From the NCBI GenBank assembly GCA_905178155.1, contig CAJINV010000005.1, forward strand, positions 6,780,153 to 6,844,152: DNA of 64,000 bases. Reading direction: 5' to 3'. Below are positions 129-63,575 of the stretch, piece by piece. Position 1 is the first letter of the stretch. Each line of letters starts with the position of its first letter. A program made the position numbers and the translations under genes. The notes under the pieces are model-generated. The model made no database searches. It saw only the letters and a program-made list of their open reading frames with translations, and was not told where the DNA came from. This DNA is from Amoebophrya sp. A120 (taxonomy: Eukaryota; Protista; Dinoflagellata).

Positions 129-3100
129 ATGTACCACCGGGGCGGAGGCGGAGCCGGTGGACCCGGCGCAGCTACTTCCCCCGAGAATTACACTGGCGCT
201 CTGCCCGACGGCAAATTTAACCTTCAAGCCGGGGGCTCGCACTCTAGTTCCTACGACCCCGATAAAAATTCGTCTCGACATAATTGCTCCCGGGCACCAG
301 ATGTTGAACTCGGGTCCGGGCAGTACCGGGATCCCGAATCGGGGGATATTGTTTACTCGCAGTCGCCACTTTGGAAGGACAAAGAGAACCACCTGCAGAG
401 CAGCACCAGCAGCTACTTCCAACTCAATTCCCGGACGGGAAGTCGGCAGCATTTGATCCTGCAGTTCCGGCAAACAACCGTGAAAGCGTTAGCAACTTTC
501 CGTGCCTGCCCGGAACTGTTCTTAACCGTCTCGCTCTTCTGCATCAGTGCGACAATTTACATTTACGTCTATTGTCTCAGTAGTTCTTCTACTTCGAGCG
601 GTTCTTCGTTGTTTTTCGCCGATGCAGATGATTATATGGGAATTGAAGCTGAATACGAAAGAACAAATAGAAGAATAACCGCCGGTGCTGCAGCTTCAAC
701 ATCTGCACAAGAAATAAATCTCGAAGATGAACTGCCTACAAAGAGGACTTCCATGACGGCACTCCCAACCACAAACATCGACCCCGCGGAGGCGGGTATC
801 ACACCTATGGACCCGAAGAAATTTTCAACTTTAAGTACGACGAGTTCCGCGACCCCGGTGGTTTTGCCGACGTCTAGGAAGGCACGGAAGGTGACGGATT
901 CTTTTCTCTCGGAGAGCTCGAAAAAGAATCACGCGGAACGACTAGCGAAATTTGGCCAGTATGTGAAAAGAAAAAATGCTTCTTCAACAACATCTTCCAA
1001 AACAACCAAGGATACAACAAAAATCACACCACCACCGCAAGCTGCCGCACCCAGCACGAAAATAGATGGCAGAATACTGAACGAGGACAAGGTGAAGAGC
1101 GCCGAGCAGGTGATTTTGACGTTGCCGATGACTATTCAGGAAAAAACCGCGTTCGAACTAGCAATAGAAATTTCGGACTACATGCAAACCAATTTCGAGG
1201 ATGAGAATGAAGAGCCAAAACCTGCAGAAGAAGCGAAAGAAGCAGCAAAAACCGCAGATGACAAAGCAACTGCGGCTGCAACTGCATCATCCACAAAAGA
1301 GCAACCTGATGAAATCAAAAGTGGAAAGAAATCAGCTGCAGATCAAGTAGATTCTGCTAATACCGCAGGGTCCTCGTTCAGGATGTCGGCCATCCTCCCC
1401 CAGCAGCTATCGCAGATCATGATCAGCAAACTGAATATGGGTTCGACATCGGTAAACAACGGTCGGGATTTTGAGCAGGAGCTGGTGATATCGTTGTCGA
1501 AACAGCAAGTGGACCAGGATTTGGATGGGAGAATAGATCTGATCGAACTAATATCAAATACAAATTATGTCATCTGGGTCTGGAAGGATGCAATGTTTGT
1601 CATGCACATTTTGCATGACTCCTGATGTCTGTGATGCATGCCCTAGCATGACAGATTTTGTGAGGGCTTCTTGATGCCTATATCGCATGAGAAATGCCCT
1701 CTCGCCCTGGCAAAAACTGGACCTCTTTTGCTGTTCATGCAATTCAGATTTTCGTAGAATTCAGACGCAGCATCACAAGTTGCATCCTTCCAGACCCAGA
1801 CAGAGACATATTTGCAATGCATAGCTAACAGATCTTTTCAAAACCACCCACGTGCCGAAAGAGAAGAACAAGGACGGTTCCGAGCATTTCAACTACGACT
1901 GCGGAATGCTCGACATTTTTGACAAACTTTCTCGGGGCGAAAGTGGGGGGCTGATCGCAGCAGAGGTGGTGGACGGGGCGTATGAGATGCTGTATGGACT
2001 CGCCAGGGATCATTCACGTATTAGTGATCTGAGTTTTTGCGTATGGCATTTTTCACCATGCTTTTCATGCATCACTGGCTTACCTTTGTCTCGCATGCCG
2101 AGCATGACAAGTTTATTCCATTACAACTAAACAAAACCAGACGACCCCCCGACCCAGACGCAGCAATACTGCCCGGACGGGCAGAACTCGGTCTACGTCT
2201 GCGATGCGGGGAACAAGTCGGGCAAATTTAACGACTTCCTCACCACGGACTTCCAGCACGAGGACAATCCCGGCGCGGAACCGCTGGAGATGGACCAGAG
2301 TCTGTTATCAAATGCAAATATGTCTGGGTCTGGAGGGTTGCAAGACTTGTCATGCAGGTTTTCCATGACGTCGCGTGAGGTCTGTCATGCATGACCTAGC
2401 ATCACGGAGTTTGTGTGACCTCTAGAGATTGTTTCTCAACAACTTGGTCAAAAGTGGACAGCTTTTGGTAATCATGCAACACAGGTTTCTGCACTATCCA
2501 GAATTGGCATGACAAGTTCCACCTTTCCAGACCCAGACATATTTGCAATGCATATCTGTGTAAGCTCTACAACTTTGCTTTCAGTTCGAACATCAAGCAG
2601 GCGACGGCGGAGCAGGTGAAGCAGGTCGGGCAAGCGTGCGAGGGTTTGATGAGTACAAGCGGGCAGAATTGCTGTCACTGGGTGCCTATCAAATGTAAAA
2701 ATGTCTGGGACTGGAAGATTGCCAGGTTTGTCATGCACATTTTGCATGACTCCTGATGTCTGTGATGCATGCCCTAGCATCACAGATTTTGTGAGGGCTT
2801 CCTGATGCCTATACCGCATGACAAATGCTCTTTCCGTGTAGCGAAACTTGGACTCTCTTTGCTGCTCATGCAATACAGATTTTTTTAGAATCCAAAATCA
2901 GGTTGACAAGTTGGATTCTTCCAGACCCAGACATTTTTACAGTTGATAGTGCCGGAAGATAAAGAGAAGAACGCGTGTCGGCCTTACTACCGGGTAAGCA
3001 CTACATTCAATTATCTGAGATTGATCTGAAAAAATGTGAATCCGAATATCATCGTACTATGATAAATCTGACTACTTACTAGACTTCTGCGAGTCCCATG

Positions 3101-3767
3101 TAAAGATCATGACAGATGTTTCAAAAAAATCATAAATGAAAAATTAAAATTCCTTAGTGTCTCCAGCCTGCACCGAAGGAACCGGAACAAGTGGAGAAGG
3201 AGAAAGAAGCAGCTGCACCAGCAGCTTCCAAGACAAGCTATCCTCAGGAAAAACGTCCCCGCCGCAGAGAGAAGCTGGAAACTTTGCAACACAAATCAAC
3301 AAGGTTTGGCTGTTGCGCATGACAGGTTCTTTGGGCTCGCGGTGTAATCCTGTGTAGCTAGTGCAGCCGCATGAGAGATCGACACCCCTATCCTGATTCT
3401 AGCATGACAAACTCCCAGATAGGAGCATTGGAAGTCGCCTGTCATGTGGCTGTGCATGAGAAACTTTTTAGGCGTGTAGATTTGCAAGACAACTTGAGGG
3501 GGCATTGTTCCTCACAATACAAGCAGTTCCTGGTTCTCCTCGAGCCAAGATGCAGACGACAAAAAATCCGCGCAACCTGCCCAATATCAAGAAGTGTACG
3601 AGGACGACACGCTGGGCGACATTGGGCCTCTGTCGCACTTCTACCAGCCCGTGAAGGTGGACACGATCCTGCCGCCCTTTGGATACAAGCAGGGGGAGAA
3701 GAAGTTCAACGTGAACGGCGTCAGCGGCTCCGGGAATCCGGACGACAAACTACCCGGGGACTTGTGA
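129..3767 (+). CDS. Multi-exon membrane-anchored protein with an EF-hand motif (4 IEs, 2 GT-AG introns)
   Basis: ORF 129-1551 has a hydrophobic segment (LFLTVSLFCISATIYIYVYCL) and an EF-hand loop DQDLDGRIDLIE. The frame continues after removing IEs 1552-1823, 2306-2554, 2687-2948 and 3239-3519 and GT-AG introns 2018-2140 and 2994-3166, to TGA at 3765-3767. Confidence 0.7.
1552..1823. mobile_element. Introner element, family A
   Basis: TIR TATCAAAT..TCTGGGTCTGGAAG / CTTCCAGACCCAGA..GCATA; DR actaa/gctaa. Confidence 0.9.
2306..2554. mobile_element. Introner element, family A
   Basis: Family A TIRs; DR tctgt. Confidence 0.92.
2687..2948. mobile_element. Introner element, family A
   Basis: Family A TIRs; DR gtgcc; interior similar to 1552-1823. 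Confidence 0.92.
3239..3519. mobile_element. Introner element, family B
   Basis: TIR TATCCTCAGGAAAAACGTCCCC, right end degenerate; DR caagc. Confidence 0.88.
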
Positions 3768-4691
3768 GTGAGTGGGAGTCTGGTGGTTGCTCGCGCGTAG
3801 TTTTCCAAGAATATTGACCACGGAGGACTAGTACACACAGAACGAGCCAAGTTTTTTTCATAGCAGTTCTCGTGAGATCATGACATTGATGTTTTCTTGT
3901 GCCAGGAAGAAGAATCTGCACCGACATTTTTAGCCGTGCCACAGCGTTAGAATTTACCTAACGAATGAACGCAAAACAAGAGACTCAATATATATCGAAA
4001 AAAGAACCTCATCAACTACAAAATTGTCCAATTATTCAACGCAAGCAAGCAAGATGATTAAGCAGAAATAATAACGCGCTCGGAATGCATTCGCAAAATA
4101 GCAGATACTACACCCAGAAACGCAAAGAATTTTTTTTCAAACGACTTTCTGTCCCGACCAAATAAATGGACCTCTCTGGCGGTTGCGGCATGTTGGTGGG
4201 AACGGCCTTGACCTCGGCCTCTTGTCCTCTCGTCCGAGTTCGTTTTCTATTAAGAAACAGGAACTATTTATACTCCTCTTCGTCATTTTTTGATCAGTGT
4301 CGTTCATGATCATCACCGTCGTGGTCGTGGATTTTCGCTCGAAAAAATAACATACCTAAAATTTGGTATGTCAGTACTAGAGGGCAAGCCGTAGTACAAC
4401 CAGCACCAGGACGAGAGATTGAGACAACACTGTAATTGTGGTTTCGTCGAGTACTTCTATGATGAGGGCTGTGCAGTTTTTTGTTGAGCGTCTGGTGCCA
4501 TGAGTGAGCGTTTTTCTTCTAGCACTTTCCATCTGATGAAAGCCCAGCTATTATCGCTTCGGCAATATGAATATACAACTTATCGCGAGATTCTCTAGGT
4601 CGAGGAAGTACAACACGACGGTAGCAGAATCATCTACAGAGCTAGGCTTTCGTTTAGTGGCGGCCGGACACCAAAAACTAAACAAAAAAGC

Positions 4692-7600
4692 ATGAGTTGT
4701 ACCAACCACGGTCACAACTCTAGCTCCTCCGGGTGGACCGGAGCGAACACGACCTCGATTGAGCAGCACAAATCCACATCCTCCTCTTCCACGGCGAACC
4801 CCAACAACCCAGATGGGTCGCACCAGCTCTCGTACCGGGGTTGCTTCGGGCTCAAAGGAGACGTCCGGAACAATGTGCACTTTTTCGAGGAGTCACAAAT
4901 CGCCTACCCGGCCGGGCACACAACCGTGCTGTATTACATGGAGCAAAAGCAGCAGCGATTTTTTCCCGGGACGGAGGGAACGGAAGAGATCACCTGCATG
5001 GCGCTCTCGCCGAATAAAAAGTACATATTTTTTATTTTGTCATGCGGCTGCTGCATCAGATGACATTTTTGTCATGCGCGCTGCTGCATATGGGTTTCTG
5101 TTTGTGATGCATTTTTACCATACCTCTACCCAGGTACCTGGCCGTCGCGGAGAAAGCGACAAACCGGCACGGTGACAAGTATCAAATGTAAAATATGTCA
5201 ATTGGGTCTAGAAACTGAAACTTGTGATGCAAGTCTGTGAACGATAACTTATCGCGATAGGTGGCCAAGCATGACAAGTTTTTGAGCTCCCCCGCCGTGT
5301 TCCGTATTCCGCATGGCAGGCTTCATTTTTGCATGACAGGCAAGAGGATCTTCTTTTCGCGGCTAAGCATCACAGACGAGGTACGAATCATGCCAGACAA
5401 GCATGACAAAATCTTCATGGACTCTTCCAGACCCAGACACATTTGCAATGCATAGCAAGCCAATAGTGACGATTTACGACCTGAATTCGCTGAGGAAAAA
5501 GAAAACCTGTTGCTACCTCGACTGCGACTCCCCAATAATAATTTCCATGGCCTTTGACCAGCACTCGAAATTGTTGTTGACGCAGATGGGGCCCAGCCCG
5601 AGTGGGAAGCACGACTACACACTGGTAGCCTGGAGCTGGGAGAAGGCCAAACCAATAGCAGCGACGAAGGTATTTCTTAGCAGTAGTTGTGGTAGCGGTA
5701 GTATGCATTGAAGAGTAACGTATCGTACTAGTATAAATCGCATGACAAATTTTCTCAACAAGGAAGCTGTAATTTGTAATGCAGATTCAGGTAGGAAAGC
5801 AGATATTTGTAAATGCATGACTGCGGTTTAAATCGTCATCCCTAATTTATTACTAGGTCGGCGCCACAGGGAACGTGTACGAGGTGTCTTTCAACCCGAT
5901 TGATTCCTATCATAAGGAAAAACGTCCCCGCCCCATAGTCAAGATGGGAAATCTGCTACACAAATCCACAACTTTTAGCTGTCACGCATGACAAGTTTGG
6001 GCTCGTAGTGTAATCCTGTTTAGCTAGTAAGGCAGCATCACAGGCCTAGCGTATCGTGCTGGTTGGAGCATGGCAAATTCCGAAACACGACTGCAAGTTG
6101 CTCCTCATGGGGCTCCGCATGAGAAATATTTTGAGCATGCAGATTTGCACTACAACTCTGGGGTGGGGACGTTTTTGCTCAGGATAATTCCACGACCTGT
6201 TTCTGTATTGGCGACAACCTGTTCAAGTTTTTCAAAATCCAAGAATCGGAGAACCTCATTCGGGCGATACCCTTATCAAATGCAAAAATGTCTGGGTCTG
6301 GAAGGTTGAGGCTTGTGATGCTAACTTTGGACTCTAAAAAAAATCTGTATTGCATGATCAGCAAGAGTAGTCTAGTTTGTGCTACGCGGGGAGAGCATTT
6401 GTCATGCGGAATAGGCATCCGGAAGCCCTCTAAAAATCTGTGGCGCTAGGTCATGCATTACAGACATCCTGGGTCATGCAAAATATGCATGACAAGCCCG
6501 GCAACATTCCAGACCCAGACGTATTTGCATTCGATAACCCTACCAACTGAACAAGCTGAAAGGCGGAAGTCAGAATTATTTGTGCCATACCTGGCTGCCA
6601 GACGACCGGTTGGTAGTAGGGACAGAAGGCGGTGAGCTGTTGCTATTTGACAATCAAGGGGAGTTTCTGGAGGTACTTATGATCTATGAATACATCAAAC
6701 AAAAAAAACAAAACTTTGTCGTTGAGTTAGTGCTGGTTAATACTTTTGTGATGTTTTGTTACATCAAGGAAACGAGTGCGCAGGACAGTTCTCGACGTCG
6801 TGGATGATGCATGCAAAGTCATTTCATGCAGCATGAGAAACAAAAACTCAAACTCACACTCAAACACAGGTCGTCTCCAAATCTGAGCCCCGGTCTCTGC
6901 AGTGCATTGGCGCCTTCGGAAAGGGTTTCGTCACCGGCGGCGATATTGAAGCGGAATCCCTCGGCTTGGGCACGAATATCATGAGAAAAAAGTGTGACAG
7001 TTACACTCTCTGATGGAAGACAAACACGACAGACAACCTCTGTCATGCAGGAAATGCTTGCCAGCCTCATGTCATTCGTGTTTTCCCTTATTTTATAGTC
7101 TGCGCATCACAGGTTTTCTTTGCCATGTCGAGCAATTTTGTGATGCAGAAACTCCAACGAGTCTGTAACTGTAACACTTTTTTCCTGTGATACCGAAGAT
7201 CAACGGGTTACTCCAAGTGTACGAGAAGGTGGATGAGAAGTCTTTCCACAAAGCAAAGGAATCGGAACTGGACGGCGGCGGGATCCGGTCCATAGCGATA
7301 AGTCCCAGCGACGAGGCGCTGTGTGTTACGACAACGACGTCGCAGTTGTATAAGCTGTCACTAGTTTCGTCGGAACTGCTGAACGAGGAGGACAAAACAG
7401 GGAAGTCGTTGTTTGAACCCGTTCTCACTCCCTTCCACAACGGGGCAATCAACGGCATGGACGTCTGTTCCACGAGGAAGTCGATGGTGGTGACTTGCGG
7501 CACGGATAAGACCGTCCGGGTGTGGAACTGCGCGGAGAAGATGTGCGAATTTTCGAAGCAATTCACCGAAGAACCTCTATCAGTGACCTTGCACCCCACC

Positions 7601-10600
7601 GGGTTTCTGATGGTTTTGGGGTTTGCGGACAAGCTGCGAGCGATGAACCTGCTCATGGACGATTTGAAGACGTTTAAGGAGGTAAATAGGACTAATTTGC
7701 TTGCAATAATATGACGCATGAGAAACTCAGTTGTTTCCCTGTTGCGAACTGCATCACAAATTGAACAAATGCATTTTGTTACATACATGCAGCGCTGCAT
7801 CGCAAAATATATGAAAATAATCACTCAAAGCTCCCCGTGAAAGCCTGCCGCGAAGTACAGTTCTCCCACGGCGGGCAGTATTTCGCCGCGGTAAACGGCA
7901 CGGTGCTTCAAGTCTACCACACCTACACCTGCGAACTGCTCTGCAGTTTCCACGGGTCTTTGTCCCGCCTCCGGACCATCACGTGGTCACAGGACGACAA
8001 CTTTCTCGCCACCGGCTCGGTGGACGGGTCGATTGTCGAGTGGAATCTGCAAACCCAGACGAAAGTCATGGAGTACAACACGAAGGGCGTTTCCTACTCC
8101 TCCATACTGTTGATCACAAACTTGGTGCAGCCAGCCAATCCAACCGGCGGCACGTCGGCGCAGGCGGCGGGGAGCGCGGGACAGGGCAACAACAGCGCAA
8201 ACAACCAAAACAACCCGAATTTGCCCATGCTTAAGCAGAACAGCATCTTTGCGTGCGGCTCGGACCGGATGCTGAAGGAGATAAAATCTTCCAATCTCCA
8301 ATCCTACGTCGATTGCGGGGTTACTCTCGGACAACTCGCGTCGTATGCATTGCAAAAGTATCGTACTCGTATAAATGCATTACAAATCTCCTCAGCATGA
8401 GAAATATAATTTGCAATGCGGATTTAGCTTTAGAAAAAAATTTGTAATGCATGACTGCAATTACTACGAGCGCGATACTTTTGCACAGGATACGTCGGCA
8501 GAAAACGCGATCTTCGCCGCCATCGCAGAACCCGAATCGAAATCCGCCCCGATGCGGATTATGCATTGCAAATATGTCTGGGTCTGGACCTGTGATGCAG
8601 AACTTCAACGACAACAAGATCTGTAATGCATGAATACCATTGGCCAGTTTTTTTGTCGTGCTGGATTGCAGTTTGTAATGCTAAACACGAATGAATCGGC
8701 AAGGAGCCGAGGGAAATTTCTCATGCTTTTTTGCCGTACAAGCAGCAAGTTTGCAATGCAAGGATCAGCAACACAAGTTTCCAGACCCAGACATATTTGC
8801 AGTGCATACGGATCTACAGAATACCCATCGGCGGGAACGTCTCGGCCCTGAACCAGCAGCAGCTCCCAGGCGACAGCAGTGGTAGCATCATGCAGAATAT
8901 CCTGTGCAAAAGTATTGTATTCGTATAAATGCATTACAAATTTCCTCAGCATGAGAAATAAAGTTTGTAATGCTGCCTTACCTTTAAGAAAAAGATTTGC
9001 AATGCGTGATTGCAATACACTTTTGCACGGGATATAGAACTATTCAGCGCACTCCGCCCCGGCAACGCGACTTCGCTTGTCCTACGACGAGTCGTTGCTT
9101 TTCAGTTCCGCGGAAGATGGGTGTCTGTTCATGTTCGAGATAAAAAGGAAAGGCGCGGCGAAGAAAAAGCGGCTGCAGGAGATGGATTTTGGTCTGCAGC
9201 AGGGGGTCAGCGACGAAATTCTGGTGACGAGGCACTTTTTGGAAAACAAGCAGAAGCAGGTGTCGGTGTTGGAGAAACAGGTTGAGGATCTACTGAACCA
9301 GATCGAATTTCAGCTCTCCCACCGCGATTCATTTCACAAGGAAAAGATGAACGAGTTAGAAGACAGATACGGGCAAGAGATAGAAGCGGAGCGGGCGAAG
9401 TACGACGCTTTGCAGCAAGAGAAAGCAGAAATGGACAGCGAGTATGAGGACCACATCCTGCAAATGGAGGAATTGCACCAACGGAATCTACAGGAACTGG
9501 AATGTACTATTTTTATTTAAACACGTTAAATTTGAATGATTATGTTTATGATTTCTTGATGTTGCCCCCGCCTACTTTGCAGATTTTTACGCCTCAACAG
9601 TTAGACATCTTTTATTTCCACATCGTAACAGCTTCCTTCCAGCAGAAGATGCAAGTGGAGGCCAACCGGTTTGAGAAACTGACGCAGCAAAGGGAAAAAG
9701 AGTCGCTCATCTGGGACCAGACAGTGAAAGAGCTGATAATACAATGAAAAATGCCCCCACCCCCGAATTTGCAAAAGTTTGTCATGCAAAGTTTCCAAAT
9801 GAAAGCTTTTTGTGTTGCATGAAGGGACTGCGAGCCTTTCTGATGCAGAATCTAGGTGCGCAAGGTGTCTTGTGCATAACAGATCCGGCTGCTGTGGGGC
9901 TCCTTGGCAACACAAATTTGAGCTATTCACCATGGAAAATTTGTGATGCTGAGACATGCAAGACGGGGAACGTTTCCATTGGAAAGGTTTGCTATACAAA
10001 TGCTGCCAAGTTCTGGGAGGGGGGCATTTTTCATTGTAATAGCTGACGGAAGCGCACAACAAACGGTTGGAAACGGATAGCAAGGCCTTGGAGGTGATGC
10101 TGGTGGAGGATTCCCTAACAAGACAACGAATCATGAGCGAGAAAGTGGACGAGGAAAAGAAGCATCGGGAAAAATTGGCGCAGTTAGAATTCGACGCGGA
10201 CGGGGAGATCGACACGTTGAAGGATAAGTACGAATACCGATTAGCGCAGGAAAAGGACGAGAAGGTGAGGCTCCGGGTATCGAAAGGAAAAATCCCCCCT
10301 CCCCATACCAAAACGGGATAATTCTGGATATTTGTTATGCTGATTTGAGGTTACAAATCGTCTCTGTATTGCAAGAAAGCAAATCCAAAACCCCGCCGCG
10401 TTCTGCAGGCAGTTTGTAATGCTGTATGTACTACGGAGGACACGCCTGCCTTGCTGGCGCCTACACCAAAGCGCCCCTACTCCGGCTTTGTGTGTGCCTG
10501 CAGTCTTCTACTGCAAGACAAAGCCGATTTGTGTACACAAATCCCGCATCACAGATTTCAATTTCGATATGGGGAGGGGGGATTTTTCCTTTTGATACCG

Positions 10601-17240: not shown

Positions 17241-18957
17241 GATATATAAAGGTCTTGTTTTCGGTCAAAAATCGTGTTTCAAACCACAATTGACTTTTTA
17301 CCGAGAACCCAAGTCGTCCCGCTATGATGAATGACAAGAATTAATATTTCTTCGACGACATAATTAAAGTAAGTTACGGTTACGAATCGACATGACTCAA
17401 GAACCCAAAACGGAAAAACTTATAGACAATCACTTTTGAGATCAAGTTTGTAAAGCCCGAGAACTCTTAAACATAAAGACGAAACTGTATCAAGGCAAGG
17501 TGATTCTTTCTTTTATCTAATCGGACAAAAATGGCAAAAAAAATGGCAAGATGTTGACAGGACATGTATAGCAGAGCGAGTTTTATTTGTCTCAACTAGC
17601 ACAGGCAGAAGTACGATGGTGAAGAGCAAAACTATGCTGGTCTTCTGGTCGTGCGACGTCGTGTGGGTGGAGAACTGCAACAGGAGGTCTTCGCACCAAC
17701 AAGGTAATCATCTCAACTGATTCCCTCCCTCTGTCTCCCTCGAAGATGGGGCATCAAACCTACGAAGAACTATGTACTTGGCACAGCATCCTCCGATACT
17801 AGGAGTCCTTGCTCAGCTCTGCTATCTCACAACTTAGCCAGGCCCAAGCTCGGTGAATCGACACTTTTGTTCATGTTCGTTAGCTTCAAGGCCACCAGAC
17901 GCGACATAGAAGTTCTGCGATTTACATAATTGTCGGACCTGACGTCGGACTGTCAGCGTCGAGAAAAAGATCCAACGTAGTACAACATTCACCATGACGC
18001 ATTTTTAGCGTTGAAAGTGAAAGAACTACCTGCGTCAATGGCACGTGGTTTCAACGCTAAATCCAAATCGTCCAAAAAGGTCGGATGATTTATCGTTGCG
18101 CTATTTTTGTACTAAGGGGTCGTCCTTCGATTTCGTTTCATTCCTTTTCGTCGCTGGATCTTTTGCCCTCGTATTGTCCGTCGTTGGGGATAAGGACGGT
18201 CGTTTATAACGTATGGAATTAGGTGAAAGCAGTACAAGTTCCGGACTTGCCAACAACTTTGTACTATTTCAGAAAGGTGTGCAGGGCGGGAAACAAGATT
18301 TGATAGATACGTTTTGTGGTCGTGGGGCGAAATCATTATCGCGGTGATCAGGTTCTCGTAGCTCGTGTCGTCACAAATCAGCAAAGCACGCTCCCATCTT
18401 CGACCTTTTTTAGCGAATGAGAGTGAAGTACAACCTATCTTCGAGCTGCCGTCTGTCTGCGCTACAAGTAAGAGAAAATCAAAATTTTAATTTTCATATT
18501 GAGCGAATCATCGTGAGAGTCAGGGTCGTGCGAGCGAGTCGTTTTTTCCTTGGATGGGAAATAGAATAAATCGAAATTGTCCGACAAGAAGCTACTTACT
18601 TTCGTGCAACTTTTTTCTTGATCGTGCAATACCTCTCCAGTTCGTCACTCGTAACAGCGCCGCACCGTGTCGTCACTACCAGCATGATCTCGAAGATATA
18701 TGAATTTTTTTATCCCGGTCAGCATGACACAAAATTCAAATAACCTGAGAACAGGGCCCAGTGAAAAAGATGTGAATAGCACGAGGATTAAGTGAATGTT
18801 TGTTTTCAGCATCCCCCCCGCGTAGCTGTACTAGTATCAGCGAAATGTTCTCCTGGGCGAGAACCACAACTAGTACTACTGGCTTCGGTAGTTCTCATCA
18901 TCACTAGTTGTAAACTACAGAGCCTAATAAGATAAATAAAATCGTCCACTAGGAAAA

Positions 18958-50481: not shown

Positions 50482-53336
50482 ATGAGGCTCGTCAGCCACG
50501 GACTTCGCTTTGCTGCGCATGCCTTTATTGCGTATGACCAAGCGGGACGCTACTTTTCCTCCCAGTCAGCACTACAATTCTCATTCGGTTTCGCCGCTGC
50601 CGCCACTACTCCGGAGCAGCTTCATCCGGCAGTGGGATCATCGCTCGACCAGCCGATAGTACCACGAGGCAGATCGTCATCCTCGAGTCGTGCGCGAAAG
50701 AGAAGAGCGAGAGCTCCGGACGAGCAGGCCGTGACGGCCGCAGAAGATGAAGATATAATTCCACCTGGCAGCTGTGCTACTAGCAGCTCCGATGGAGAGG
50801 ATGCCTCTGGACGCGGTCCTCTTCTGTTTCGGAAGATAAAAAAGGCGTGGCAAGCGGGCGGGCCCTGTAAGAAACGCCATCGCACGGGACGATCCCCTTC
50901 CACCTCAACACGAGTTGCGAAAAGAAGCAAATCATCTCGTCGCGGGCGCAGCAAGAAGGAGGGAGAGAACAAACGAAAGGCGAGCGAAATGTACGATGGG
51001 AATCAAAGCGACCAGTTTATTACAACGGCGCCGCAGGGGGCTCATGGCTCTAGTACGAGTTCTGGTCGTTCTGGTTCTCTGATCCGCGGCCCGGAAGGAC
51101 CTCAACAGGATGTTGTTACTGAAGATGTTGGTGCAGGTGTGCTTTCCAATGAAATAGGGCAAGAGCAGCAAGCTGTTCATCGTACAGAACCGCCTGCAGC
51201 TAGGGCGGAAATGCAAACCCAAACCGATCTCCTGGACCCTCTGACAGCTGATACGCCAGTGCAAACGGAAACCGACGATCTTCCTCCTGTGCCGCTGACC
51301 GATAATACGGCAGTGCAAACTGACGATGTGCCACTTCAAGAGCCGCCGACTGTCGCCGACGCTGAAGTGCAAACCGATGTTGCGGAGCCTGGAGTTGATG
51401 TGCGCGGCCCAGAAGACGTGTTTGATCATCGTGTTGTGGACGCAGCAGGAGCTCCCGCGATGATAGCTGCAGCAGCTGCGCCCCCCGGCGCTGCTGTCGC
51501 TGGTGACCCGGCCGCAGCCGTGGTTAACGTACCACAACAAGCTGCCTTGGAGCGGCCGATTGGCGCGCAGGCTGTGCCAGCGCCAAAGCCAGTTGCTCGC
51601 CCCCTGCTGTCCGAGCCGGTTTTGCAGCACATTCAGGGTTACTTGGGATCGCCGACCCTGCGGGACCTCGCAGCCTGGGGCGCCGTCAGCAGCAGAGCCG
51701 GCCCGTTTGGCCGGCAGAGGACCTTCGCGTCGCCCCTGGTCTCGCGAGAGGAAATGGAATTTTTGCGAAAATACGCTTTCGCAAACCACGTGTTAGAGGT
51801 GATTGACAACCCGGAGCGCGTGTTGTTCGGGGACAGGCTACTTTCACAGTTGCGAGCGGAGGGCAAGGTGCCGAGCGTAGCCGTGTTGGCGGACGACGCG
51901 CATTCGAAATACCACAGGGAGCGTAATGACCCTCGTGGTCCGCTTCAACTGGAGGAGGACAGTAGCGGAGATCCTTGGGACAGCGATTGGACCGGCGACG
52001 AACTTGAGCTGGATGTTAGCAAAACGACTACAGGTCGGCGCCCCCGCCAGCGTAATTATATTCCGGCGCAACACGACGTCGCGCTCGTCGATTCTGTGGA
52101 GCAGGCCCACGATGTGCCGCGCATGCGGGTGCAGAAGACAACTGAGAAGTACTATACTGGTTTTGGTGCAGCCGCCCTTGGCCTTGCCGCGCCTACGACT
52201 GCGACCTCTTTCCTTCGGCTCCAGTTGCAGCTGCAGTACCTCTTCGAGAAGTTAGACCGGAGCGAATGGAAAGTGCGGTCGTTTGTGGTCCCGCTCAACA
52301 GGTTGTATTGGGAGAAACGCTATGCATTGCAGATATGTCCGGGTCTGGAGACATGCAAACTTGTGATGCGCATTTCAGATCACGCGAAAATTTGTCATGC
52401 ATACACTTCTGCAAAGGCCTCTCGCTCTCGTTTCTTGTCACCGAAAGAGGACATTTGTCATGCGGATTAGGCATTGCCAGGCCCAGGCCTTGTAAAAACC
52501 CGTGATGCAGCTAGGGCCGGCATGCCAGACCTTGAGGGTCAAGCAAAAACAGCACGACGAACATCTGTTCTCAATTATATCCAGACCCAGACATATTTGC
52601 ATTTGATAAACGCCGTGAGAAGTATCCATTTCGACGAGCCGATGAGGCGTCACAGCGCTTCTCGACATACCAGGAACACGGCAGCTCGGCTACGGAGCCC
52701 CAGCGGAAAAGAAATCGGCAATACGACCTGCAAAAGACCCACTACGCGTACCAGCTGGCGTCCGGAGTTGGTGCTTGGAAGCTACGCTACTGCAGCCTGG
52801 CGAGCTGCGCCTGTGGGGTGGGGTTAGACGAGCTGAAGCTCAGTTCCAGAGATCGCGTTTTTCGGATGGTTGAAAGAGCGACGAGGAGAGCTCAGTCAGA
52901 GGAAAACATCGACGAGGGTCGAGGGCAGCGATCCTTGAAGATTCTCCGCTCGAATTGCGGACGGAAAAAATTCATAGAATTGACCGACGTCCACTACATT
53001 AAAAATAGACTCAATCTAGAGTCGGCCGAGAGCCTGAACCGCACCAATCGCGCAGTTTCGAAACCCCGGGGGCTGTTCCTCGAGGAAGGGGTTGCCTTTT
53101 CTTGGACGTACTTTCTTGAGGATCTAGAGGGCCGGGGAAACCCGAGGCCTTTGCGGCTGGTCCGTATGGTTTTTCAAGCCATGGCGCGCCCGGAAGACGA
53201 CGAGGACCGACGACAACACGGACCCCTCCTCGAAGCTTCCAATGCAATTGCAGAGGGGAAGCTGCGGAAGGAAGGTGGCGGAGTTGATGGGCACCTTTTT
53301 CAAGTTGTCATAGGCCGAACCAACACGCCGCACTAG
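50482..53336 (+). CDS. Hypothetical, possibly secreted protein; distant family member with tandem (V/T)QT motifs (1 IE)
   Basis: A 662-aa ORF joins ORF 52818-53336 after removal of IE 52321-52608 (WEKR-REKYPF). Confidence 0.7.
52321..52608. mobile_element. Introner element, family A
   Basis: Family A TIRs; DR aacgc. Confidence 0.92.
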
Positions 53337-54843: not shown

Positions 54844-57800
54844 ATGAAGCAACAACAGCAGCGAACCTCGCTCCGGGCCGCTGCTGGTCCTCGGTTTCGG
54901 CTGCCTCTACTGGTTAATATCCTACCGTTGCAACCGCTTTTATTTAACAGCTTGTTGCTTCTAGGATCGTCATGCGTTGTACAGTTTTTTCTACCCAGCG
55001 CCGTGGAGGTTTCCGCATCCCATGTTCGGCGTCGTTCTCGAGAGGCCGATTATAGTCTTTCTGAAACATCAGAAGAAGACTCTGAGCAAGAAGAAGACTA
55101 CTCCTCTTCCGGCTCGGAAGACGACGGGGAGTACTATCGTCAGGTGGTCCGCGCAATTTCTTCCAGGGACATCGGTAGACAACCACTATCCCTCGTTCTC
55201 ACGCGGAGGAATTTGCAGCCAGGGGTAGTTCTTCCGGGGGCACAGCAGCTCGCCCCAAGTCCACCGTCTTCTTCTTCTTCTAGCGGTTTGGTCAGCAGCG
55301 TGCCTGAGGACCACTACTACAGCGACGGGAGCGGTCCAGTCCGTAGCGTGCCCGAGGACCACTACAGCGAGGGCGGGGAGCAACGTAGTACTGATAGGAG
55401 CGAAAGCGAATTGTATACTGGTTCTACTTCGAGCGAAGAAGGTCGGAGTCGGAGTCGCAGTAAGTCGTTTTCATCCACTACTAGTCGGGATAGAAGCCAT
55501 CGTCGGGGACGAGGTCGGAGTGGAAGTGGTAGTCGAGCCTCAAGTCGTAGAGCCCGTAGCGCTTCGTCTGGTCGTCGTTATACGAGCCGACAGCGTGGGG
55601 ATGAAATAAGAAAATCGAAATCCGCACCTCGTACTACTAGTACCCCCGCCGCGCCAGCCATGATCGTCTCCGCTCCTGGGACGATGATTCTCCAGGGAAC
55701 TACACAGGATCAGTATCAACAACCGCACACTGGACCAGGGCACCAGGTCTTGGGTTTCCCGGATAATTTGAATTTTTTCCCGGTGCAAGTTTCCAAGTTC
55801 CTCACCAAAAACGAGAATAAAGAGTTCTGCAACGGTTTGAACGGAGTCGACGGGGGTGCCTTTTTGCAGCGTAAGCTGTCGCACGAACAGGAAATTGAAG
55901 TGAACTATGGGCTGGTCCGGCATTTGGTACAAATCCAGCACGACCCGTTTGGCGCGTTGCTCGGAGCCCATCGGGCGGAAGAGTTCCTTCGGAACGAGGA
56001 AAAAGCGATTGCCAATAATTACTACAATGCTCAGGCTGCGCACCTGTTTCGCTTTCTGCGCGACCGAGATTTGGTGAGAGGACAGGGGAACCCTCGTCAA
56101 AGCGGGGGGCACAGAAATACTGCGAGGAAGAAGATCATGAAGAGGATTCGGGCAAGATACACGTCACTTTTGGAGAATGTCCGGAACCAGTGGGAGTGGC
56201 GTCTGCTGGAGTCCAGCAAGAACAACAACTCCCGTCGCTCTACCAGGGTGGAATTGTTGCAGCGCTTCCGGTCCCGGGAGCGAAATTTGCAACACCGGCA
56301 TGCTCGGTGTTTGCACAAGGATAACCCGGGTGGGCGAACAAAATACTCGAGCTGGTGGTTTCAGTCCCAAAAATTTTCACATGCGCGAACTGTACAAGAA
56401 CTGATCATGTCAGAAGTTGCGAATCCGGCGGATGAAGGGGATAGAATCAGGTTCAAAGAAGATAACATGCTGTGGCTACCGGCTTTTCTTTTGCCGCGGA
56501 TCAGCCATGCGGCGTGGACCGACATGCTGTTACCAGGACCACGACAGGAAGATGCGGCGAGGTGGTCTCCTACTCTTGGTACTACTAGTACTACACCGCT
56601 AGGTGAAGACCACTTCTATCAGGGAACTACAAAAACGTCTGAGTACGACGCTTTTTGCGCCCAACTGTTTGACGCATTCTCGGCGCACAAGCAACACGAC
56701 GAGGAACAAGAAAAGCTCCTGGCCGACGCCTTTGCGTCTTCGCTGACGTTATCACCAGCATCATATCCTGCGTGGTCATCTGCACATCAGGAAATAAGAA
56801 CACCGCAAAGCTCTTCCACGTGGAGGTCCGGCTTTGTTGGTACTGGCGCAGCTGCCAGCTCGACTGCAGGAGCGGGCCCAAGGAACAATAATTCCACTGC
56901 TCCACAACATGCCGGAGTACAACATAACCTTAACCCGCAAGAACATCAAGAAGTGGAACAAGTTCTTCCGACGGTGCTGCAATTTTGCAGGAGCAAGAAC
57001 AAGTTCACAACCAGGACTACACCCCGGCAGCAGCAAGATGACAAACTCGCACTGGTCGAGAACAAGGCAAAAAAACACCTGGCAAAGCGTTTGAGACACT
57101 ATAACTCGCCGATGGATCCCCAACTGCTTTGGGTACATCTGAAAGACGAATACAAATTCCAGCTTGCCGCGCTGTATGACTCCCAGCCGGTGGTGCTGCA
57201 GGATTTTTTCTTCACGGCCCTAACGTCGTTGAAGGTTGCTGCGGCCCCAGGCGGTCCTGATGATCGTCCTGATTTAAGTTCTTTTCATTTCCTCGAACAG
57301 ATTCGAGAATTACTTTCGCTGGAGGACTATGGATTGTAAAAATGTCTGGGTCTGGAAGAATTCATGTTTGTCATGCTTGTCTGGCCCGACTCTTAAATCT
57401 GTCACGCACGTTACCCAAGAGCTTCGTTTTTCTGTGATGCAGAAGCGCAGTCTGTCATGCAGAATAGGCAACACCTAGGAGCTCAGAAACTTGCCATGCT
57501 GAGCCAGCATTTGTAGCCTCATCATGAGACGCCACCCAGCATCACAAGTCCCTAGACCCAGACATTTTTACATTTGATAAGGACGAGAATAGTTGGACAG
57601 TGCAGGCTCAGATTTTCGACGTGGACTATTCGAGTGAAGAACCTATTGCCGAGCAAACAATTGAGCTTCAAGATGTAGTTGTACGAGAGGACTTGTTCTC
57701 AATCCAGCAGGACCACGAGCAGAAGTTCATGCCAGGAAGAGCCAAGAAGAGCATGCCACTGAAAAAGCTAAATGAATCAAAATCTCGCGACGCTCTCTTA

Positions 57801-59079
57801 CTCCTGTTGCAGAGCCATGTTGCTTCCTCGACGTTTTTTCCAAACGGTGATGAGTGGGCTGTGCGGCACGGGGAGAACTCAGACAAAATCTTCGTCGTGG
57901 GTGAGTTTGACAGTGAATTGACCATTGACCAGGAAGTTTCGCCGGCCCCACCACGGTATCAATTGTAAAAATGTCTGGGTCTGGAGGCTTGCAACCTGTG
58001 ATGCGCATTTCAGACCACAGGAAAATCTCTCATGCATGGAAAGCAAAAGTTGCCCATATCTTGTAACCAAAACAGCCGATCTGTCATGCGGATCAGGCAT
58101 TGAGAAGCTGTCGTAAGATTTGTGATGCTAGACCCGTATTCTAGACCAACCTTCTGGGGCAACCAGAACCTGCATGACAAACTTCTGCACTCTACTTCCA
58201 GACCCAGACATATTTGCATTTGATACACGGGTTCTGAGAAGGGGGGAATCAAGAGGACGAACAATACGGCGGAACTTTCAGGTATGGCGTTCTCAAACGT
58301 TACATTCTCAACTGTTACATGATTTGTCATGCAAAATGATCATCAAGATCCACACTATCAAGCTGCTTCGCATGACAAATTTGCGAATGGCTAAACAGCG
58401 CCCAAATCTGTTCGGAATTTGTAATGCTACAGATGCAACCTCCCTCCTTTCACTTTTCCCATTCTTGCATGACAAATCCATGTAACACTTGAGAATGTAA
58501 CAGTTGAGAACGCCATATCAGGTTGGCTACGAGTTCCGGGTTGAGGAGTACGTACCGCTTCCAGGGTCGTTTTTCGATAAACCAGAACGGGAAGAGGATT
58601 TTTATCATGGTGAAACACGAAGAACGGTACCACTAAAGGGACCACCACCACCATCATCACTACCAGCATCATCTTCCCGACAACATCAAGAACCGGCAAT
58701 ATTAAGCAATCGACTTCGTTTCGAGAACCGCTTGAAAAAGGAGGAGGCCGCGGCCCAAAGCATCGCCAATCGGACCAAGTTCGCGGCAATGCACTTCACA
58801 CTGACGCTGGTCGACTGGAAGGACCTTGCGAACGCGGGGTTCGACATTCGGTCCTGGACAAACGCAGATTTCGATTTTGACCGTCGTCGTCGTGGAGGTC
58901 ATAGTTCCAACGCGAGGTGGGACGATGAAACAGGTGGCGTTCATCGTGGTAAAAAAATTTTCGACGGCTGGACCGTGATCGGAAGTGACGAATACGACTA
59001 TGATCAGCGTAGAAGGAATTTACCGCACGGGCCGAGGTTGTATTTCCGTCTCGTCTTCAAACCGCCGGCCGGCAACTAG
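54844..59079 (+). CDS. Putative secreted protein, family member 2 (3 IEs)
   Basis: ATG at 54844, hydrophobic N-terminus and an RS-rich region. The frame is restored across 3 IEs to TAG at 59077-59079. Homologous to 42155-47260. Confidence 0.72.
57328..57579. mobile_element. Introner element, family A
   Basis: Family A TIRs; DR aggac. Confidence 0.92.
57957..58225. mobile_element. Introner element, family A
   Basis: Family A TIRs; DR cacgg; interior similar to 52321-52608. Confidence 0.92.
58283..58517. mobile_element. Introner element, family F
   Basis: TATGGCGTTCTCAAACGTTACATTCTCAA / TTGAGAATGTAACAGTTGAGAACGCCATA; DR tcagg. Confidence 0.92.
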
Positions 59080-60818: not shown

Positions 60819-63575
60819 ATGACGAAGTTTATCATGTGTAAAAATTCCGCTATCCTCTCGTGCGCAGCTCTCCTGGCCGCTGCTTTCCAGGTGGAGCAAC
60901 AAGTAAGTCCTGTCGTAGGCCTCGGCACAGTGAAGCAGCAATCCCTTCTCCGCCGCCGCGGGAACAGCAGGAGAACGAAAAAGGAGGTAGAAAACAAGCA
61001 TGTAGATGCTGCAAGAACTTTATCTTCCGAAGAGGGAGCGAGGGCGGATGGTACAGAAGGAACATCACTTTCATTCCCCCGGGCGAGCAACTTGTTGCAG
61101 AAGAAAGCGACTGTGTCGGCGCAGCACAACGCTGGGCTGCTGACCAAAGGGCCGCTCACATTGGTCCGAGACGAGGAAGAGGACCTTGGTGTTTCTCATG
61201 CTGTCCAACACGCACAAGAGGTGGACGGTGCAGCAGATCGAAAGGTGGGCACGGGCACGGCGGAGAAATTGAATTGGGAGGACAAAGACACCGATCTGAA
61301 AGCGGTTGTTCGCAACACCACCGATGTTCATGACGGAGATCTCGTGTCCTCCTTTTCGTCTACAACGATGGAGACCTCCGCGAAACTACAGGAGAAGAAA
61401 AGCCAGATGTTGACCACGACGACGGCGAGAAAAAACCAACTCGGCTTCCACATGTACTCCCAGCGGTTTCAAAATCGCATGCGACTCTCCTTTTCCCTCA
61501 ACCTGTTCGAAAACGGGATTGAGGGGGTGGCGGAGAGGATGGGGAACGTGGCGCGGATGTTCACTGACCCAGGGGAAGCGATCAACGAGATGAAAGAGTA
61601 CGTCTTTCAACAACTGGAGAAAGTGGCGAAGCAGGTGTCTGAAATGGGGTTTTCCAACCTGATTTGGAAGTTGGTCGAGTTGGTCATTTATCCTGTGCAA
61701 AAGTATCGTACTCGTATTGCAATCGTGCATTACAATTTTTTTTCTCAACGTAAATCCGCATTACAAATTTCATTTCTCATGCTGAGCTAATTTGTAATGC
61801 ATTTATACGAATACGATACTTTTGCAATGCATATCATTGGCGGCGATAAAGTCGACATGCTGAAGCCGTTTCTAGTGCAGTGTGCGGATAAATTTCGCAC
61901 TCTGTTGAGTCAGATCATGGGCAGTACCACGTCGCAGGCGCTGGATGGGTTGATGGCAGGTGGAACTAGTACATCTGGAACAAGTACTACGGAAGACGAG
62001 GAAATGGAAAATGAAGACGGCAGCAGTAGTACAAGCTCTAGCAGTTCCTCTTTTGCACAAAAAAGTAGAAAGACGACCACGAGCAGCAAAATGCGTTTTT
62101 TCAAGGCGAAATTGTTATCTTCCGGAAACAACGCCAACGACAAAATTATGCAGAACAAGGTCGCCCCTTCGGAGGTTTCCGGCGCGTTTTCGTCGCTTTT
62201 CAAGATGGAGCTGTTCACGGCGGATGGCTTCTTGAAAGCGTTCAAGGATCTGGTAAGTCACGTGAAGGAAATGATCAAAAGCCAGTTCATGCCGGACGTT
62301 TTTACCGCGTCCCTCACAACCTATGAGAGTGCACAACTCCACCCCCTCCCGCTCATTCGCATTGCATGAACGGCAATACAAACACCAGCACACGTGGAGC
62401 CTGCGCATGACAAATTCATGCGCCTAGTCGTGTAGCACTGTTTGGACTTCCTGAATCTGTCATGCAAACAAGGCCGCAGGGAAGCCCTTGGATTTGGGCT
62501 TTTGCATGACAAATGAGGGGGAGGGGGAGTTGTGCACTTTCATATCACCTTCCTGCATTCCATCGGCGAAATGGTCACGGAGTTTATCACCGAGAACATG
62601 GGAAAGTATGCAATGCAAAAGCATCGTACTCGTAGTAATTGCAAACATGCATTACAGATCTTGTTCCCAAGCTAGATCCGCATTACAAATTTTATTTCTC
62701 ATGCTGAGGAAATTTGTAATGCAATTTATACGAATACGATACTTTTGCAATGCATAGAAAGCCCTTTGACACCATTGTCGCTGCGGGGAAGAAGTTACAG
62801 TCGGACTTCAACAATTTCGTCGGGGGCTTACAAGACGGACTCGACCAGGTGGGGGAGCAGTTCGAGGACTTCGCGGACAACGTCGGCAATGCCGCAAAGG
62901 ACGTCGGCAACCGCATGACAGACGCAGCGAACGATGTGAAGAGTGGCTTCAAAGACGCGGCCAGTGCCATGAAAGACAGCATGCAGGAGGGCTGGGATTA
63001 TGCATTGCAAATATGTCTGGGTCTGGGAGATTGCGAGATTTGTCATGCTAGTGTAAGTAGCATGACTCTGAACTTTGTATTGCGCGGCCGCGAAGAGCTC
63101 TTCTTGCCTGTCATGCAAGAACGCAGTTGGTCATTCGGAGTACGCAACTCAGAACCACGGAATAAAAACTTGTCATGCTCGGCAGCGCATTAGAGTGTGC
63201 TCACTATTTCCTTTCTTGCATCACAAGTTTATTCCAGACCCAGACATACTTGCAATGCATAGGGATCGCCTCTCCTGGTCCCGACGACGTGGCAGATCCA
63301 GTAGTTTTCTGCTACGAGGGATGAAAAGTTTTGCTCCTTTCGATACGGTTGTTCTGGACCACCACCCTGAAACCGTGATGTCTGGCGCTTCTTCTCCCCT
63401 CGAAGATGGCGACGACGACGACGACGACCAAGGAGTTTCGTTTTTCGAGCGAAAAGTGAAACATTTCGAGGCGAAATACTTGGCCGCGGTGAAGAACGGC
63501 ACTACGTCAGTTCTCGCTGGTGCTGCCCCTGCGACGTTACAAACGGCGACCCCCGTTACCGTCCTCGCACGATAA
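60819..63575 (+). CDS. Putative secreted protein with LEA/apolipoprotein-like amphipathic repeats (4 IEs)
   Basis: Signal-like SAILSCAALLAAAF and ~11-aa repeats FADNVGNAAKD-VGNRMTDAAND-VKSGFKDAASA. The exon segments join across 4 IEs. Confidence 0.7.
61689..61833. mobile_element. Introner element, family D
   Basis: Family D TIRs; DR tcatt. Confidence 0.92.
62322..62544. mobile_element. Introner element, family C
   Basis: Family C TIRs; DR caacc/tcacc. Confidence 0.88.
62607..62756. mobile_element. Introner element, family D
   Basis: Family D TIRs; DR gaaag. Confidence 0.92.
62999..63261. mobile_element. Introner element, family A
   Basis: Family A TIRs; DR gggat. Confidence 0.92.

Follow-up and report, generated by a model that had tools for sequence, protein, structure and literature searches.

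The window, the whole 64,000-nucleotide (nt) stretch of the Amoebophrya sp. A120 genome analysed here, contains 49 short elements with terminal inverted repeats (TIRs) and flanking 5-bp direct repeats. They are introner elements of the A120 type, a class already published; that they belong to it and are lost at the level of RNA we regard as practically certain for the gene in which this could be tested. Taken as a whole, the observations are best explained, with somewhat better than even confidence, by A120-type introners spread in trans by an integrase-type enzyme and removed by a relaxed major spliceosome cutting one nucleotide before the TAT with which the elements begin (register -1). At stake is how a cell removes tens of thousands of introns that have neither GT nor AG, apparently without the U1 small nuclear RNA (snRNA). 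Since the class is published, the window adds examples and not a new system; what is added here is a uniform 5-bp repeat with random targets, shown in 368 further copies, the retention of the upstream copy at four mismatched repeats, and a two-strand motif common to the elements and to GT-AG introns.

A strict scan of the window for TAT...ATA pairs with at least 14 of 20 end bases complementary returned 65 pairs, compared with 1-4 in each of five codon-block shuffles, in which no pair carried a 5-bp direct repeat. A relaxed scan left 44 non-overlapping elements, and a search with the known ends added five more whose TIRs contain indels (1552-1823, 5180-5454, 42839-43120, 43541-43828, 46736-46994). 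The 49 elements measure 137-320 bp and sum to 11,322 bp, or 17.7% of the window. All begin with TAT and end with ATA except those at 9737 (start TAA) and 28287 (end ACA), leaving 47 of 49 with both; 36 of the direct repeats are perfect, 11 have one mismatch and 2 have two. There are 18 A-type elements (subgroups of 9, 8 and 1), 12 of family D, 4 each of B and F, 3 each of C and E, and five singletons. An earlier account made from the sequence alone (the sequence-only reading) had the length range, the near-universal TAT...ATA ends, the sizes of these six families and the 36 perfect repeats right; its total of 48 was short by one, its four singletons are five, and the repeats with one or two mismatches number 13 instead of 12. 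A GT-AG pair can be found in any register for only 3 of the 49, a GC-AG or GA-AG pair for 4 more, and neither for 42; with a GT-AG register in 3/49 here and in 10/216 copies from other loci (see below), these are not canonical U2 introns. A search of Rfam gave no match at the gathering threshold.

The elements, genes and introns referred to in the text are listed by position, with the 5-bp repeat in two forms where its copies differ; no strand is assigned to the elements.

1552..1823, TIR element, family A, ACTAA/GCTAA
2306..2554, TIR element, family A, TCTGT
2687..2948, TIR element, family A, GTGCC
3239..3519, TIR element, family B, CAAGC
4604..17773, + strand, CFAP57/WDR65-like gene 1 transcript span, 16 TIR elements, 7 GT-AG introns; 4,566 nt, 1,314 amino acids (aa)
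5180..5454, TIR element, family A, ACAAG/GCAAG; homologues have GDKP here, the D being encoded with the upstream base
5670..5856, + strand, GT-AG intron with a decayed family D element inside (blastn match to a family D copy, E 9e-20)
5908..6186, TIR element, family B, ATTCC
6274..6536, TIR element, family A, ACCCT
6977..7192, TIR element, family C, ACGAA/CCGAA; RNA piece restarts at 7194, downstream base 1 missing from RNA
8344..8492, TIR element, family D, CGTCG
8560..8808, TIR element, family A (own subgroup), CGGAT
8898..9034, TIR element, family D, CAGAA/TAGAA; RNA joint 8893-9036, skip 142 nt
9737..10041, TIR element, singleton (starts TAA), GCTGA; RNA skip 310 nt
10278..10597, TIR element, singleton, CCGGG; RNA skip 325 nt
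10642..10865, TIR element, family E, TTTGA/TATGA; RNA joint 10638-10868, skip 229 nt, upstream base 2 kept
10946..11180, TIR element, singleton, GATAT; RNA skip 240 nt
15522..15803, TIR element, family B, AGCAG; RNA skip 287 nt
15890..16143, TIR element, family A, TACTA; RNA skip 259 nt
16324..16534, TIR element, family C, GGAGC/GGAAC; RNA joint 16322-16539, skip 216 nt, upstream base 4 kept; most informative junction
16601..16835, TIR element, family F, CAGGC; RNA contig loose end
16883..17159, TIR element, family A, CCCGG
18958..21155 (end approximate), + strand, B-box and WW-domain gene, 417 aa once four elements are removed
19976..20142, TIR element, family D, GCACT
20262..20496, TIR element, family E, GGTGG; a GT-AG pair fits at register -4
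20526..20795, TIR element, family A, GAACA
20860..21110, TIR element, family A, AAGAT
21608..21838, TIR element, singleton, past the WW-gene stop codon and outside coding sequence, GAAAC/GAAAG (base-5 mismatch)
22638..29028, + strand, CFAP57/WDR65-like gene 2, 7 TIR elements, 8 modelled GT-AG introns; 1,272-codon open frame after removal
23685..23807, + strand, modelled GT-AG intron, its body a family D core (blastn E 3e-24, 90% over 91 nt)
23892..24134, TIR element, family F, CGACA
25550..25717, TIR element, family D, CCGAT
25760..25908, TIR element, family D, GCCGC
27502..27713, TIR element, singleton, CTCCG
27766..28024, TIR element, family A, GCGGA/GCGAA
28287..28437, TIR element, family D (ends ACA), TGAAT
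28694..28904, TIR element, family C, AAGGA
36106..36272, TIR element, family D, TTTGA
42839..43120, TIR element, family A, ACACG
43299..43455, TIR element, family D, TGGTC/TGGTT (base-5 mismatch)
43541..43828, TIR element, family A, TTACG/TCACG
43871..44024, TIR element, family D, GAGGT/CAGGT; a GT-AG pair fits at register -2
44112..44390, TIR element, family B, AGAAT
44912..45049, TIR element, family D, CAGAA
45389..45639, TIR element, family A, TTGTT
46736..46994, TIR element, family F, GGGAC/ACGAC
52321..52608, TIR element, family A, AACGC
57328..57579, TIR element, family A, AGGAC
57957..58225, TIR element, family A, CACGG
58283..58517, TIR element, family F, TCAGG; GT-AG at register -1
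61689..61833, TIR element, family D, TCATT
62322..62544, TIR element, family E, CAACC/TCACC
62607..62756, TIR element, family D, GAAAG
62999..63261, TIR element, family A, GGGAT

Deletion of an element together with 5 nt leaves 38 of the 40 junctions callable on both sides in phase (9 of the 49 are uncallable), and the length of the insertion is not divisible by 3 in 34 of the 49; the earlier proposal that removing an element and one repeat copy restores reading frames is thus borne out. Removal yields two CFAP57/WDR65-like proteins (WDR65 being, we assume, the same protein as CFAP57) and one 417-aa B-box/WW protein. Both peptides quoted in the sequence-only reading, one from CFAP57 and one from the WW domain, are recovered, the junction peptide of the latter being WVAFKDDNLNTYWYN. 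The 1,314-aa product of gene 1 has segments 53-87% identical to another Amoebophrya protein, and the top protein matches of the CFAP57-like gene come from Amoebophrya (62%, MMETSP0795; 49%, A25); the window's own annotated protein is absent among the matches of 297-2,000 aa, and the junctions were read without annotation. By strand scoring all 49 elements lie in a + strand gene context, 43 of them confidently. The link to ciliary genes drawn by the sequence-only reading did not hold: the two CFAP57-like genes hold 23 elements and other predicted genes 25, with 1 outside coding sequence.

Transcript evidence is available for gene 1, from the contigs of four runs (X3-X6; 2 samples, 1 study). All eight elements inside 8830-16610 are skipped in all four runs, in every case as exactly the element length plus 5 (the skips of 142 to 325 nt listed above), and the same contigs also skip three GT-AG introns. 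They splice out whole the 3,671-nt intron 11623-15293, a 3.7-kb body that X3-X6 leave uncovered save for one 164-nt piece at depth 2, whereas the DNA-like run X1 covers it at about 50x. The gene 1 model less its 16 elements and 7 GT-AG introns is 4,566 nt long, which is the length of the X3 contig. Removal from RNA at non-GT-AG boundaries is therefore seen in 8/8 joints and, by total length, in 16/16 elements of this gene, and the X3-X6 contigs behave as spliced transcripts. Two extra joints within elements (11090-11155 and 15930-16113, with sides of 23-26, in 2 and 3 of the 4 runs) were attributed to other repeat copies, and the raw-read runs X9 and X10 gave 11 and 3 reads with partial matches on element ends only, probably from another strain.

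It follows that precise removal of these elements without GT-AG sites, as anticipated from the sequence, occurs in gene 1, where the contigs skip the elements at non-GT-AG joints in place of retention, splicing at nearby GT-AG sites or the decay of a pseudogene. That the genes are dead, or that ordinary GT-AG sites close by do the work, has virtually no probability: a GT-AG register exists for 3/49 elements and RNA was examined for one gene, and against this stand the exact length + 5 joints with non-GT-AG ends and the full-length 1,314-aa product with its 53-87% identical segments, which refute the idea for gene 1.

The DNA keeps the elements and the RNA loses them, because X3-X6 contigs skip them while X1 contigs cross their ends: eight element ends are crossed in X1 with at least 31 letters on each side, at depth 41-51. 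Unique bins in X1 stand at 45-63x, with introns and intergenic DNA covered, and the element ends are at single-copy depth. Ciliate internal eliminated sequences carry TA at their ends, leave behind one copy of a short direct repeat and derive from transposons, and the anatomy of the elements resembles theirs; excision from DNA, in a life stage or a somatic copy, was accordingly weighed. The evidence comes from one DNA-like run, contigs drop rare forms, and only 15 of 1,991 joints were displayed, filled by X1 repeat joints, so that rare excised DNA would have escaped notice. Even so, X1 retains the elements at single-copy depth, contrary to what defines a ciliate-type eliminated sequence (absence from the somatic copy; one run); a second assembly record carries them too; and the element-free contigs also lack the GT-AG introns and any cover of the intron that bears a long interspersed nuclear element (LINE). 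Loose ends in X3-X6 hold element-exon junctions of other loci, as unspliced RNA would, DNA carry-over being the alternative. We therefore consider DNA excision very improbable, and the preference of the sequence-only reading for RNA splicing is upheld at the RNA level in gene 1.

Perfect direct repeats make the joints ambiguous, and mismatched ones lift part of this ambiguity; in RNA-seq they can show where the cut truly falls. At 6977 and 8898 it is the upstream base of repeat position 1 that remains in the RNA, at 10642 that of position 2 and at 16324 that of position 4. The letters fitting both sides number four at joint 8893-9036, three at 10638-10868 and two at 16322-16539, and -1 and 0 relative to TAT are the only registers that every one of the 8 joints allows. 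Since four mismatched repeats keep the upstream copy in RNA, a single fixed cut at one of these two registers is indicated, and we hold it to be quite probable. Protein conservation at 5180 also favours the upstream base, and at 8898 the downstream base would create a stop codon. In a codon test that includes the window cases, the upstream base comes out ahead, by 14:4 (p 0.03) at repeat position 1 and by 23:9 (p 0.02) at positions 1 and 2 together. The joints at 10642 and 16324 refute a cut directly behind repeat base 1, which would have produced a TAG-like acceptor.

A sliding register, in which cuts fall anywhere within the direct repeat or each element adopts the register most like GT/AG, appears improbable. 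Farhat et al. 2021 do call the splice sites variable relative to the hairpin (PMC7789003, Fig. 3 legend), the four informative junctions are compatible with sliding (p 0.15), and 7/49 elements could use GT-, GC- or GA-AG in some register. Each of the four mismatched junctions, however, is a single clean contig in four runs with the upstream base kept, the downstream base at 8898 would give a stop codon, and repeat mismatches are common (5.9% per site) and evenly spread over positions, where sliding would tend to select against them.

Between the two fixed registers, -1 would be preferred over 0 by analogy with host donors. All 16 modelled canonical donors start GTA (GT was imposed by the modelling, A was not), and at register -1 the intron would start N-T-A-T, matching +2 and +3 of these donors in either orientation. 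The nine predominant non-canonical sites of A120 in Table S4 of Farhat et al. 2021 are all NT-NN and the nine of A25 all TT-NN, and A25 repeats start TTA (PMC7789003); both sets of sites may be read as an N-T-A donor. If register -1 is true, two unrelated TIR types (TAT in A120, TTA in A25) would come under one N-T-A donor rule. The 3' cut, 4 (or 5) nt past ATA, falls in random sequence and would have to be set by position. Whether the chemistry is spliceosomal with a cut at -1 is, in our judgement, evenly balanced.

To characterize insertion, we used a pattern scan of a metagenome collection that yielded 147 loci, all of one other assembly record and about 0.62 Mb in total; they contain the families of the window but do not overlap it, and none is orthologous to it. 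From these loci 368 elements were taken without requiring a direct repeat: in 274 (74.5%) the 5-bp repeat is exact, and it contains one mismatch in 61, two in 22 and more in 11; exact repeats of other lengths occur at chance level (0-0.3% for 4 and 6-9 bp, 2-7% for 2-3 bp). Among the 417 copies of window and loci combined the families number 95, 62, 56, 19, 16, 16, 13 and 12, and every large family occurs in both orientations (e.g., 34:37, 27:19, 24:14). Of the 368 elements, 148 could not be oriented, and 4 of the 220 gene-oriented ones were dropped for having more than two mismatches; in the remaining 216 the target sites are not biased towards AG/G, and 10 of these copies could use GT-AG, against about 4% calculated for random 5-mers. 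Their mismatches at repeat positions 1-5 number 14, 13, 13, 17 and 12, and the skew to bases 1-2 in the window (7, 4, 0, 2, 2) was not replicated. Short and non-coding, with TIRs, a target-site duplication (TSD) of fixed length and many dispersed copies in both orientations, the elements have the anatomy of MITEs (miniature transposable elements with inverted repeats) and share one end code. At both ends, 89-94% of 269 gene-oriented elements have A at TIR positions 11-13 (a TAT-N7-AAA end, in which the TAT of the loci copies was required by the detector and is not independent evidence). These three positions depart from the family consensus at 1.5% of sites, compared with a mismatch rate of 5.9% in the target repeats, which suggests, on comparison of the sequences, selection after insertion.

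Ginger-like transposons have TGT...ACA termini and a TSD of 4-6 bp; the 5-bp repeat fits, TAT...ATA is one base off, and an integrase-type open reading frame (ORF) was not found in the window or the loci. A scan of 93 of the 159 ORFs of at least 250 aa found no transposase or integrase family. Long copies encoding a transposase, which the sequence-only reading had marked as worth looking for, did not turn up in the window or the 147 loci: of eight candidate pairs longer than 450 bp two, with mismatched repeats and a weak TIR match, were left aside, and among the six looked into, five are ordinary copies extended by an insert, while one, a chance pairing, takes in two complete elements. Three viral-contig matches were lone chance matches without element structure.

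Five such lengthened elements (L024:632-1465, L028:6314-6770, L051:571-1051, L052:3862-4492, L074:7024-7995, in the loci) reach 457-972 bp through internal inserts, several with short tandem tails near a CATG-containing site, and keep TIRs and 5-bp repeat intact; the elements seem to act as safe landing sites for retro-insertions.

Folding predictions set the elements apart from the canonical introns: the median z is -7.1, with the ends predicted to pair in register in 42/49, and for canonical introns it is +0.1, with no such end pairing. The predicted hairpin could set the position of the 3' cut. This bears on another explanation, in which a non-spliceosomal or second, structure-guided machine like that proposed for Euglena would recognise the hairpin, cut at fixed spacers, of 0 or 1 nt at the 5' and 4-5 nt at the 3' end, and perhaps release a circle; we lean against it while regarding it as a real possibility. 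The end pairing of the elements and its absence from canonical introns, operation in both orientations, and the lack of AG or any fixed base at the 3' cut all agree with such a machine; so do the Euglena code, with the same asymmetry of a short 5' and a longer 3' spacer around paired motifs (PMC12501133), and the report that U1 snRNA was not detected in Amoebophrya (PMC7789003). On the other hand, register -1 reproduces the N-T-A donor of the host, as does the unrelated A25 TIR, the protein set of the spliceosome is nearly full (PMC7789003), and the GT-AG introns share an internal motif with the elements, two of them even holding element cores, which suggests one shared system.

The motif, GCAT(G/C)A(C/G)A, occurs 11.3 times per kb in the elements and 8.3 in canonical introns, compared with 0.1 in exons and 0.3 in sampled intergenic and untranslated (UTR) stretches, and is equally frequent on both strands. 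In the form GCATNA(C/G)A it is present in 268/269 oriented elements and in 12/15 short canonical introns (20 hits, against 1.1 expected from shuffles), or in 9/12 (15 hits) once three element-like introns are set aside. Two canonical introns (5670-5856 and 23685-23807) contain decayed family D cores without intact ends, and either elements landed in these introns and then decayed or introners turned canonical; the motif in the remaining canonical introns may accordingly be an older relic. Within families the motif diverges by 4.5-7.2%, compared with 20.0% at other interior positions and 5.9% for target-repeat mismatch. As its divergence is about that of the target repeats, the motif may be no more than a site for transposase binding: selection acting during transposition would account for it, and no selection after insertion is evident. 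Reading GCATGAC solely as a branch point is not supported either, the canonical introns having 11 sense and 9 antisense hits at no fixed distance to the 3' end. No mention of the motif was found in the sections consulted and the supplement text, figures apart, of Farhat et al. 2021 (PMC7789003), and a literature search for the motif with 'intron' returned only unrelated work among the matches listed.

The sequence of events that we favour, with A120-type introners handled by a relaxed major spliceosome, is the following. An element inserts at an essentially random 5-mer in either orientation and duplicates 5 bp, an anatomy that is observed; the enzyme would act in trans, a Ginger-like DDE enzyme being the candidate from the literature. 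Once transcribed, the element is predicted to fold back with its ends paired. The element and 5 nt leave the RNA while the upstream repeat copy stays in the exon (8 direct junctions, 16 by length, 4 mismatched repeats). The 5' cut would fall between repeat bases 4 and 5, so that the intron would begin N-T-A-T and keep the +2 U and +3 A of GTA donors; the 3' cut would fall 4 nt after ATA, set by distance from the base of the hairpin and not by AG. More speculatively, the TAT-N7-AAA end and GCATNA(C/G)A may be read by a protein standing in for U1 and for AG recognition, and the shared internal motif would then offer a bait with which to find that protein. If all this is true, we are dealing with a spliceosome that measures the 3' site instead of reading it, and with a portable self-removing insertion cassette.

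An extension of this scheme, which we think unlikely, is a transposon-derived splice code in which all introns, TIR and GT-AG alike, are marked by the two-strand GCATNA(C/G)A. A domesticated transposon end-binding protein would replace U1 as the reader of the motif, the donor would need only N-T-A, which the TIR provides in both orientations, and the acceptor would be measured 4 nt from the base of the hairpin irrespective of its sequence; such a code would have taken the place of splice-site recognition by sequence. New insertions would then be harmless at once, and GT-AG introns could arise from decayed elements.

Several points weigh against the relaxed-spliceosome explanation. Neither a transposase nor an autonomous copy was found in the window or in the roughly 0.62 Mb of loci, and Farhat et al. 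2021 found no transposase in A120 (PMC7789003). The RNA label of X3-X6 is a tool's guess, these runs and X1 may underlie the assembly, and contigs cannot show intermediates such as lariats or circles. The four mismatched repeats come from one gene, and free sliding over six registers would agree with them with probability 0.15. The codon test is flat at positions 4 (9:10) and 5 (6:7) and thus does not separate -1 from 0. The sites of Table S4 depend on how the aligner placed ambiguous junctions; the sites annotated by Gozashti 2025, also aligner-dependent, start with 'gc' or 'ga' in about 14% of cases in large families, a misfit with one register (PMC12130899). At 16324 AG stands in the exon copy and AA in the intron copy, hence there is no pull towards AG. 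Finally, the conservation of AAA is in part circular, as the ends were detected by similarity.

With regard to the surroundings of the elements, the two CFAP57/WDR65-like genes (4604-17773 and 22638-29028) are tandem paralogues on the same strand with the B-box/WW gene between them, and by eye their elements and canonical introns are at differing positions. All element-bearing gene models in the window are on the + strand, and strands agree within most of the 147 loci too, which fits reports of unidirectional gene clusters in the genus. Between the gene models, the long stretches 36760-42100, 47200-50450 and 53400-54700 yielded no intact element; this scarcity outside genes could reflect either decay once splicing is dispensable or an insertion preference for genes. 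Within the GT-AG intron 11623-15293 of gene 1 sits a non-LTR (long terminal repeat) retrotransposon (11655-15133, + strand); its frame of 1,118 codons is intact (Pfam RVT_1, E 4e-25), its 14-bp target duplication lies at 11655 and 15120, and its short tail consists of ATG repeats. At 38431-39445 a 203-codon frame, with no Pfam match, resembles by eye the C-terminal part of a DIRS/Ngaro-type tyrosine recombinase and is flanked by a block repeated at 38452, 39425 and 40716 (to 40750); together, 38431-39445 and 40716-40750 are likely a retroelement remnant. A 261-codon frame at 48300-49085 (- strand), also without a Pfam match, runs opposite to the surrounding genes.

These results can be set against the systems already described. 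Farhat et al. 2021 report A120 introner ends of TAT, seven variable bases and at least three A, with 3-5-nt direct repeats (5 bp in the legend of Fig. S19), 29,850 copies in many families making up 17% of the assembly, RNA-seq support for 66,565 A120 introns, a mean of about 240 nt for non-canonical introns, and nearly all spliceosomal proteins with no U1 snRNA detected (PMC7789003). Host, TAT-N7-AAA end, direct repeats, families, lengths, share of the sequence (17.7% of the window against 17% of the assembly), non-GT-AG removal from RNA and predicted hairpin all agree with that class, and in the text and supplement text of that source we see no difference in kind; there the repeats are variable in length and position and the splice sites variable, whereas here the repeat has a uniform length of 5 bp and adjoins the element directly, and one register (-1 or 0) can account for all junctions examined. 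In 41 of the 58 rows of the table of Gozashti 2025 (PMC12130899), most A120 families are TIR DNA elements of unassigned superfamily, with lengths like ours (about 149, 209, 234, 252-260, 278, 305 and 320 bp); the automated TSD calls there run from 2 to 6, and the splice register is not resolved in these rows. The table labels family 38 (about 808 bp) 'Ginger; 5-bp TSD, TA/TA termini' and gives it homology to LTR-type elements, although the text states that it lacks the expected Ginger termini and homology; no copy in the window or loci has a long ORF or homology of this kind. Both the class and its 5-bp repeat, as well as a candidate mobiliser, have thus been published, through Farhat et al. 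2021 and Gozashti 2025. The sequence-only reading was correct that the excision mechanism is open in the parts of this literature consulted, and more was published than it gave, namely the TAT-N7-AAA end, the 5-bp repeats, the RNA-seq support for 66,565 introns and the Ginger-like family 38.

Further afield, the nonconventional introns of Euglena are likewise non-GT-AG, with inverted repeats that pair the ends, short direct repeats, a proposed MITE origin, and fixed spacers of which the 5' is shorter than the 3' (Nomura et al. 2025, PMC12501133; PMC11282704). Their motifs are CDG/CHG at +4 with a purine after the intron, the code was tested by knock-in, and circles are reported, in an unrelated lineage and sequence (PMC12501133); the elements here do not fit the CDG...CHG pattern with N3/N5-6 spacers and purine, as their end consensus is TAT(C/G)... 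and no fixed purine follows the repeat. In the sections of PMC13326754 and PMC12787238 available there is nothing on A120-type elements. The introns of Fritillaria borealis are also MITE-derived, with TIR and TSD and without GT-AG, and are removed by an altered U2 spliceosome; unlike the present elements with their random targets, they have AG-AC/AG-AT as preferred ends, a preferred exonic TAC target and a modified U1 that is retained (PMC11282704; PMC13326754). The introners of Micromonas, Aureococcus and core dinoflagellates are intron-creating MITE-like elements with TIR and TSD as well, yet use canonical or GC-AG sites, one carried and one co-opted, as only about 5% of the copies here could (PMC7789003; PMC11282704). 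Closest to home, another Amoebophrya strain has mainly GT-AG introns and a U1 (PMC12005148), and the trait is thus confined to part of the genus.

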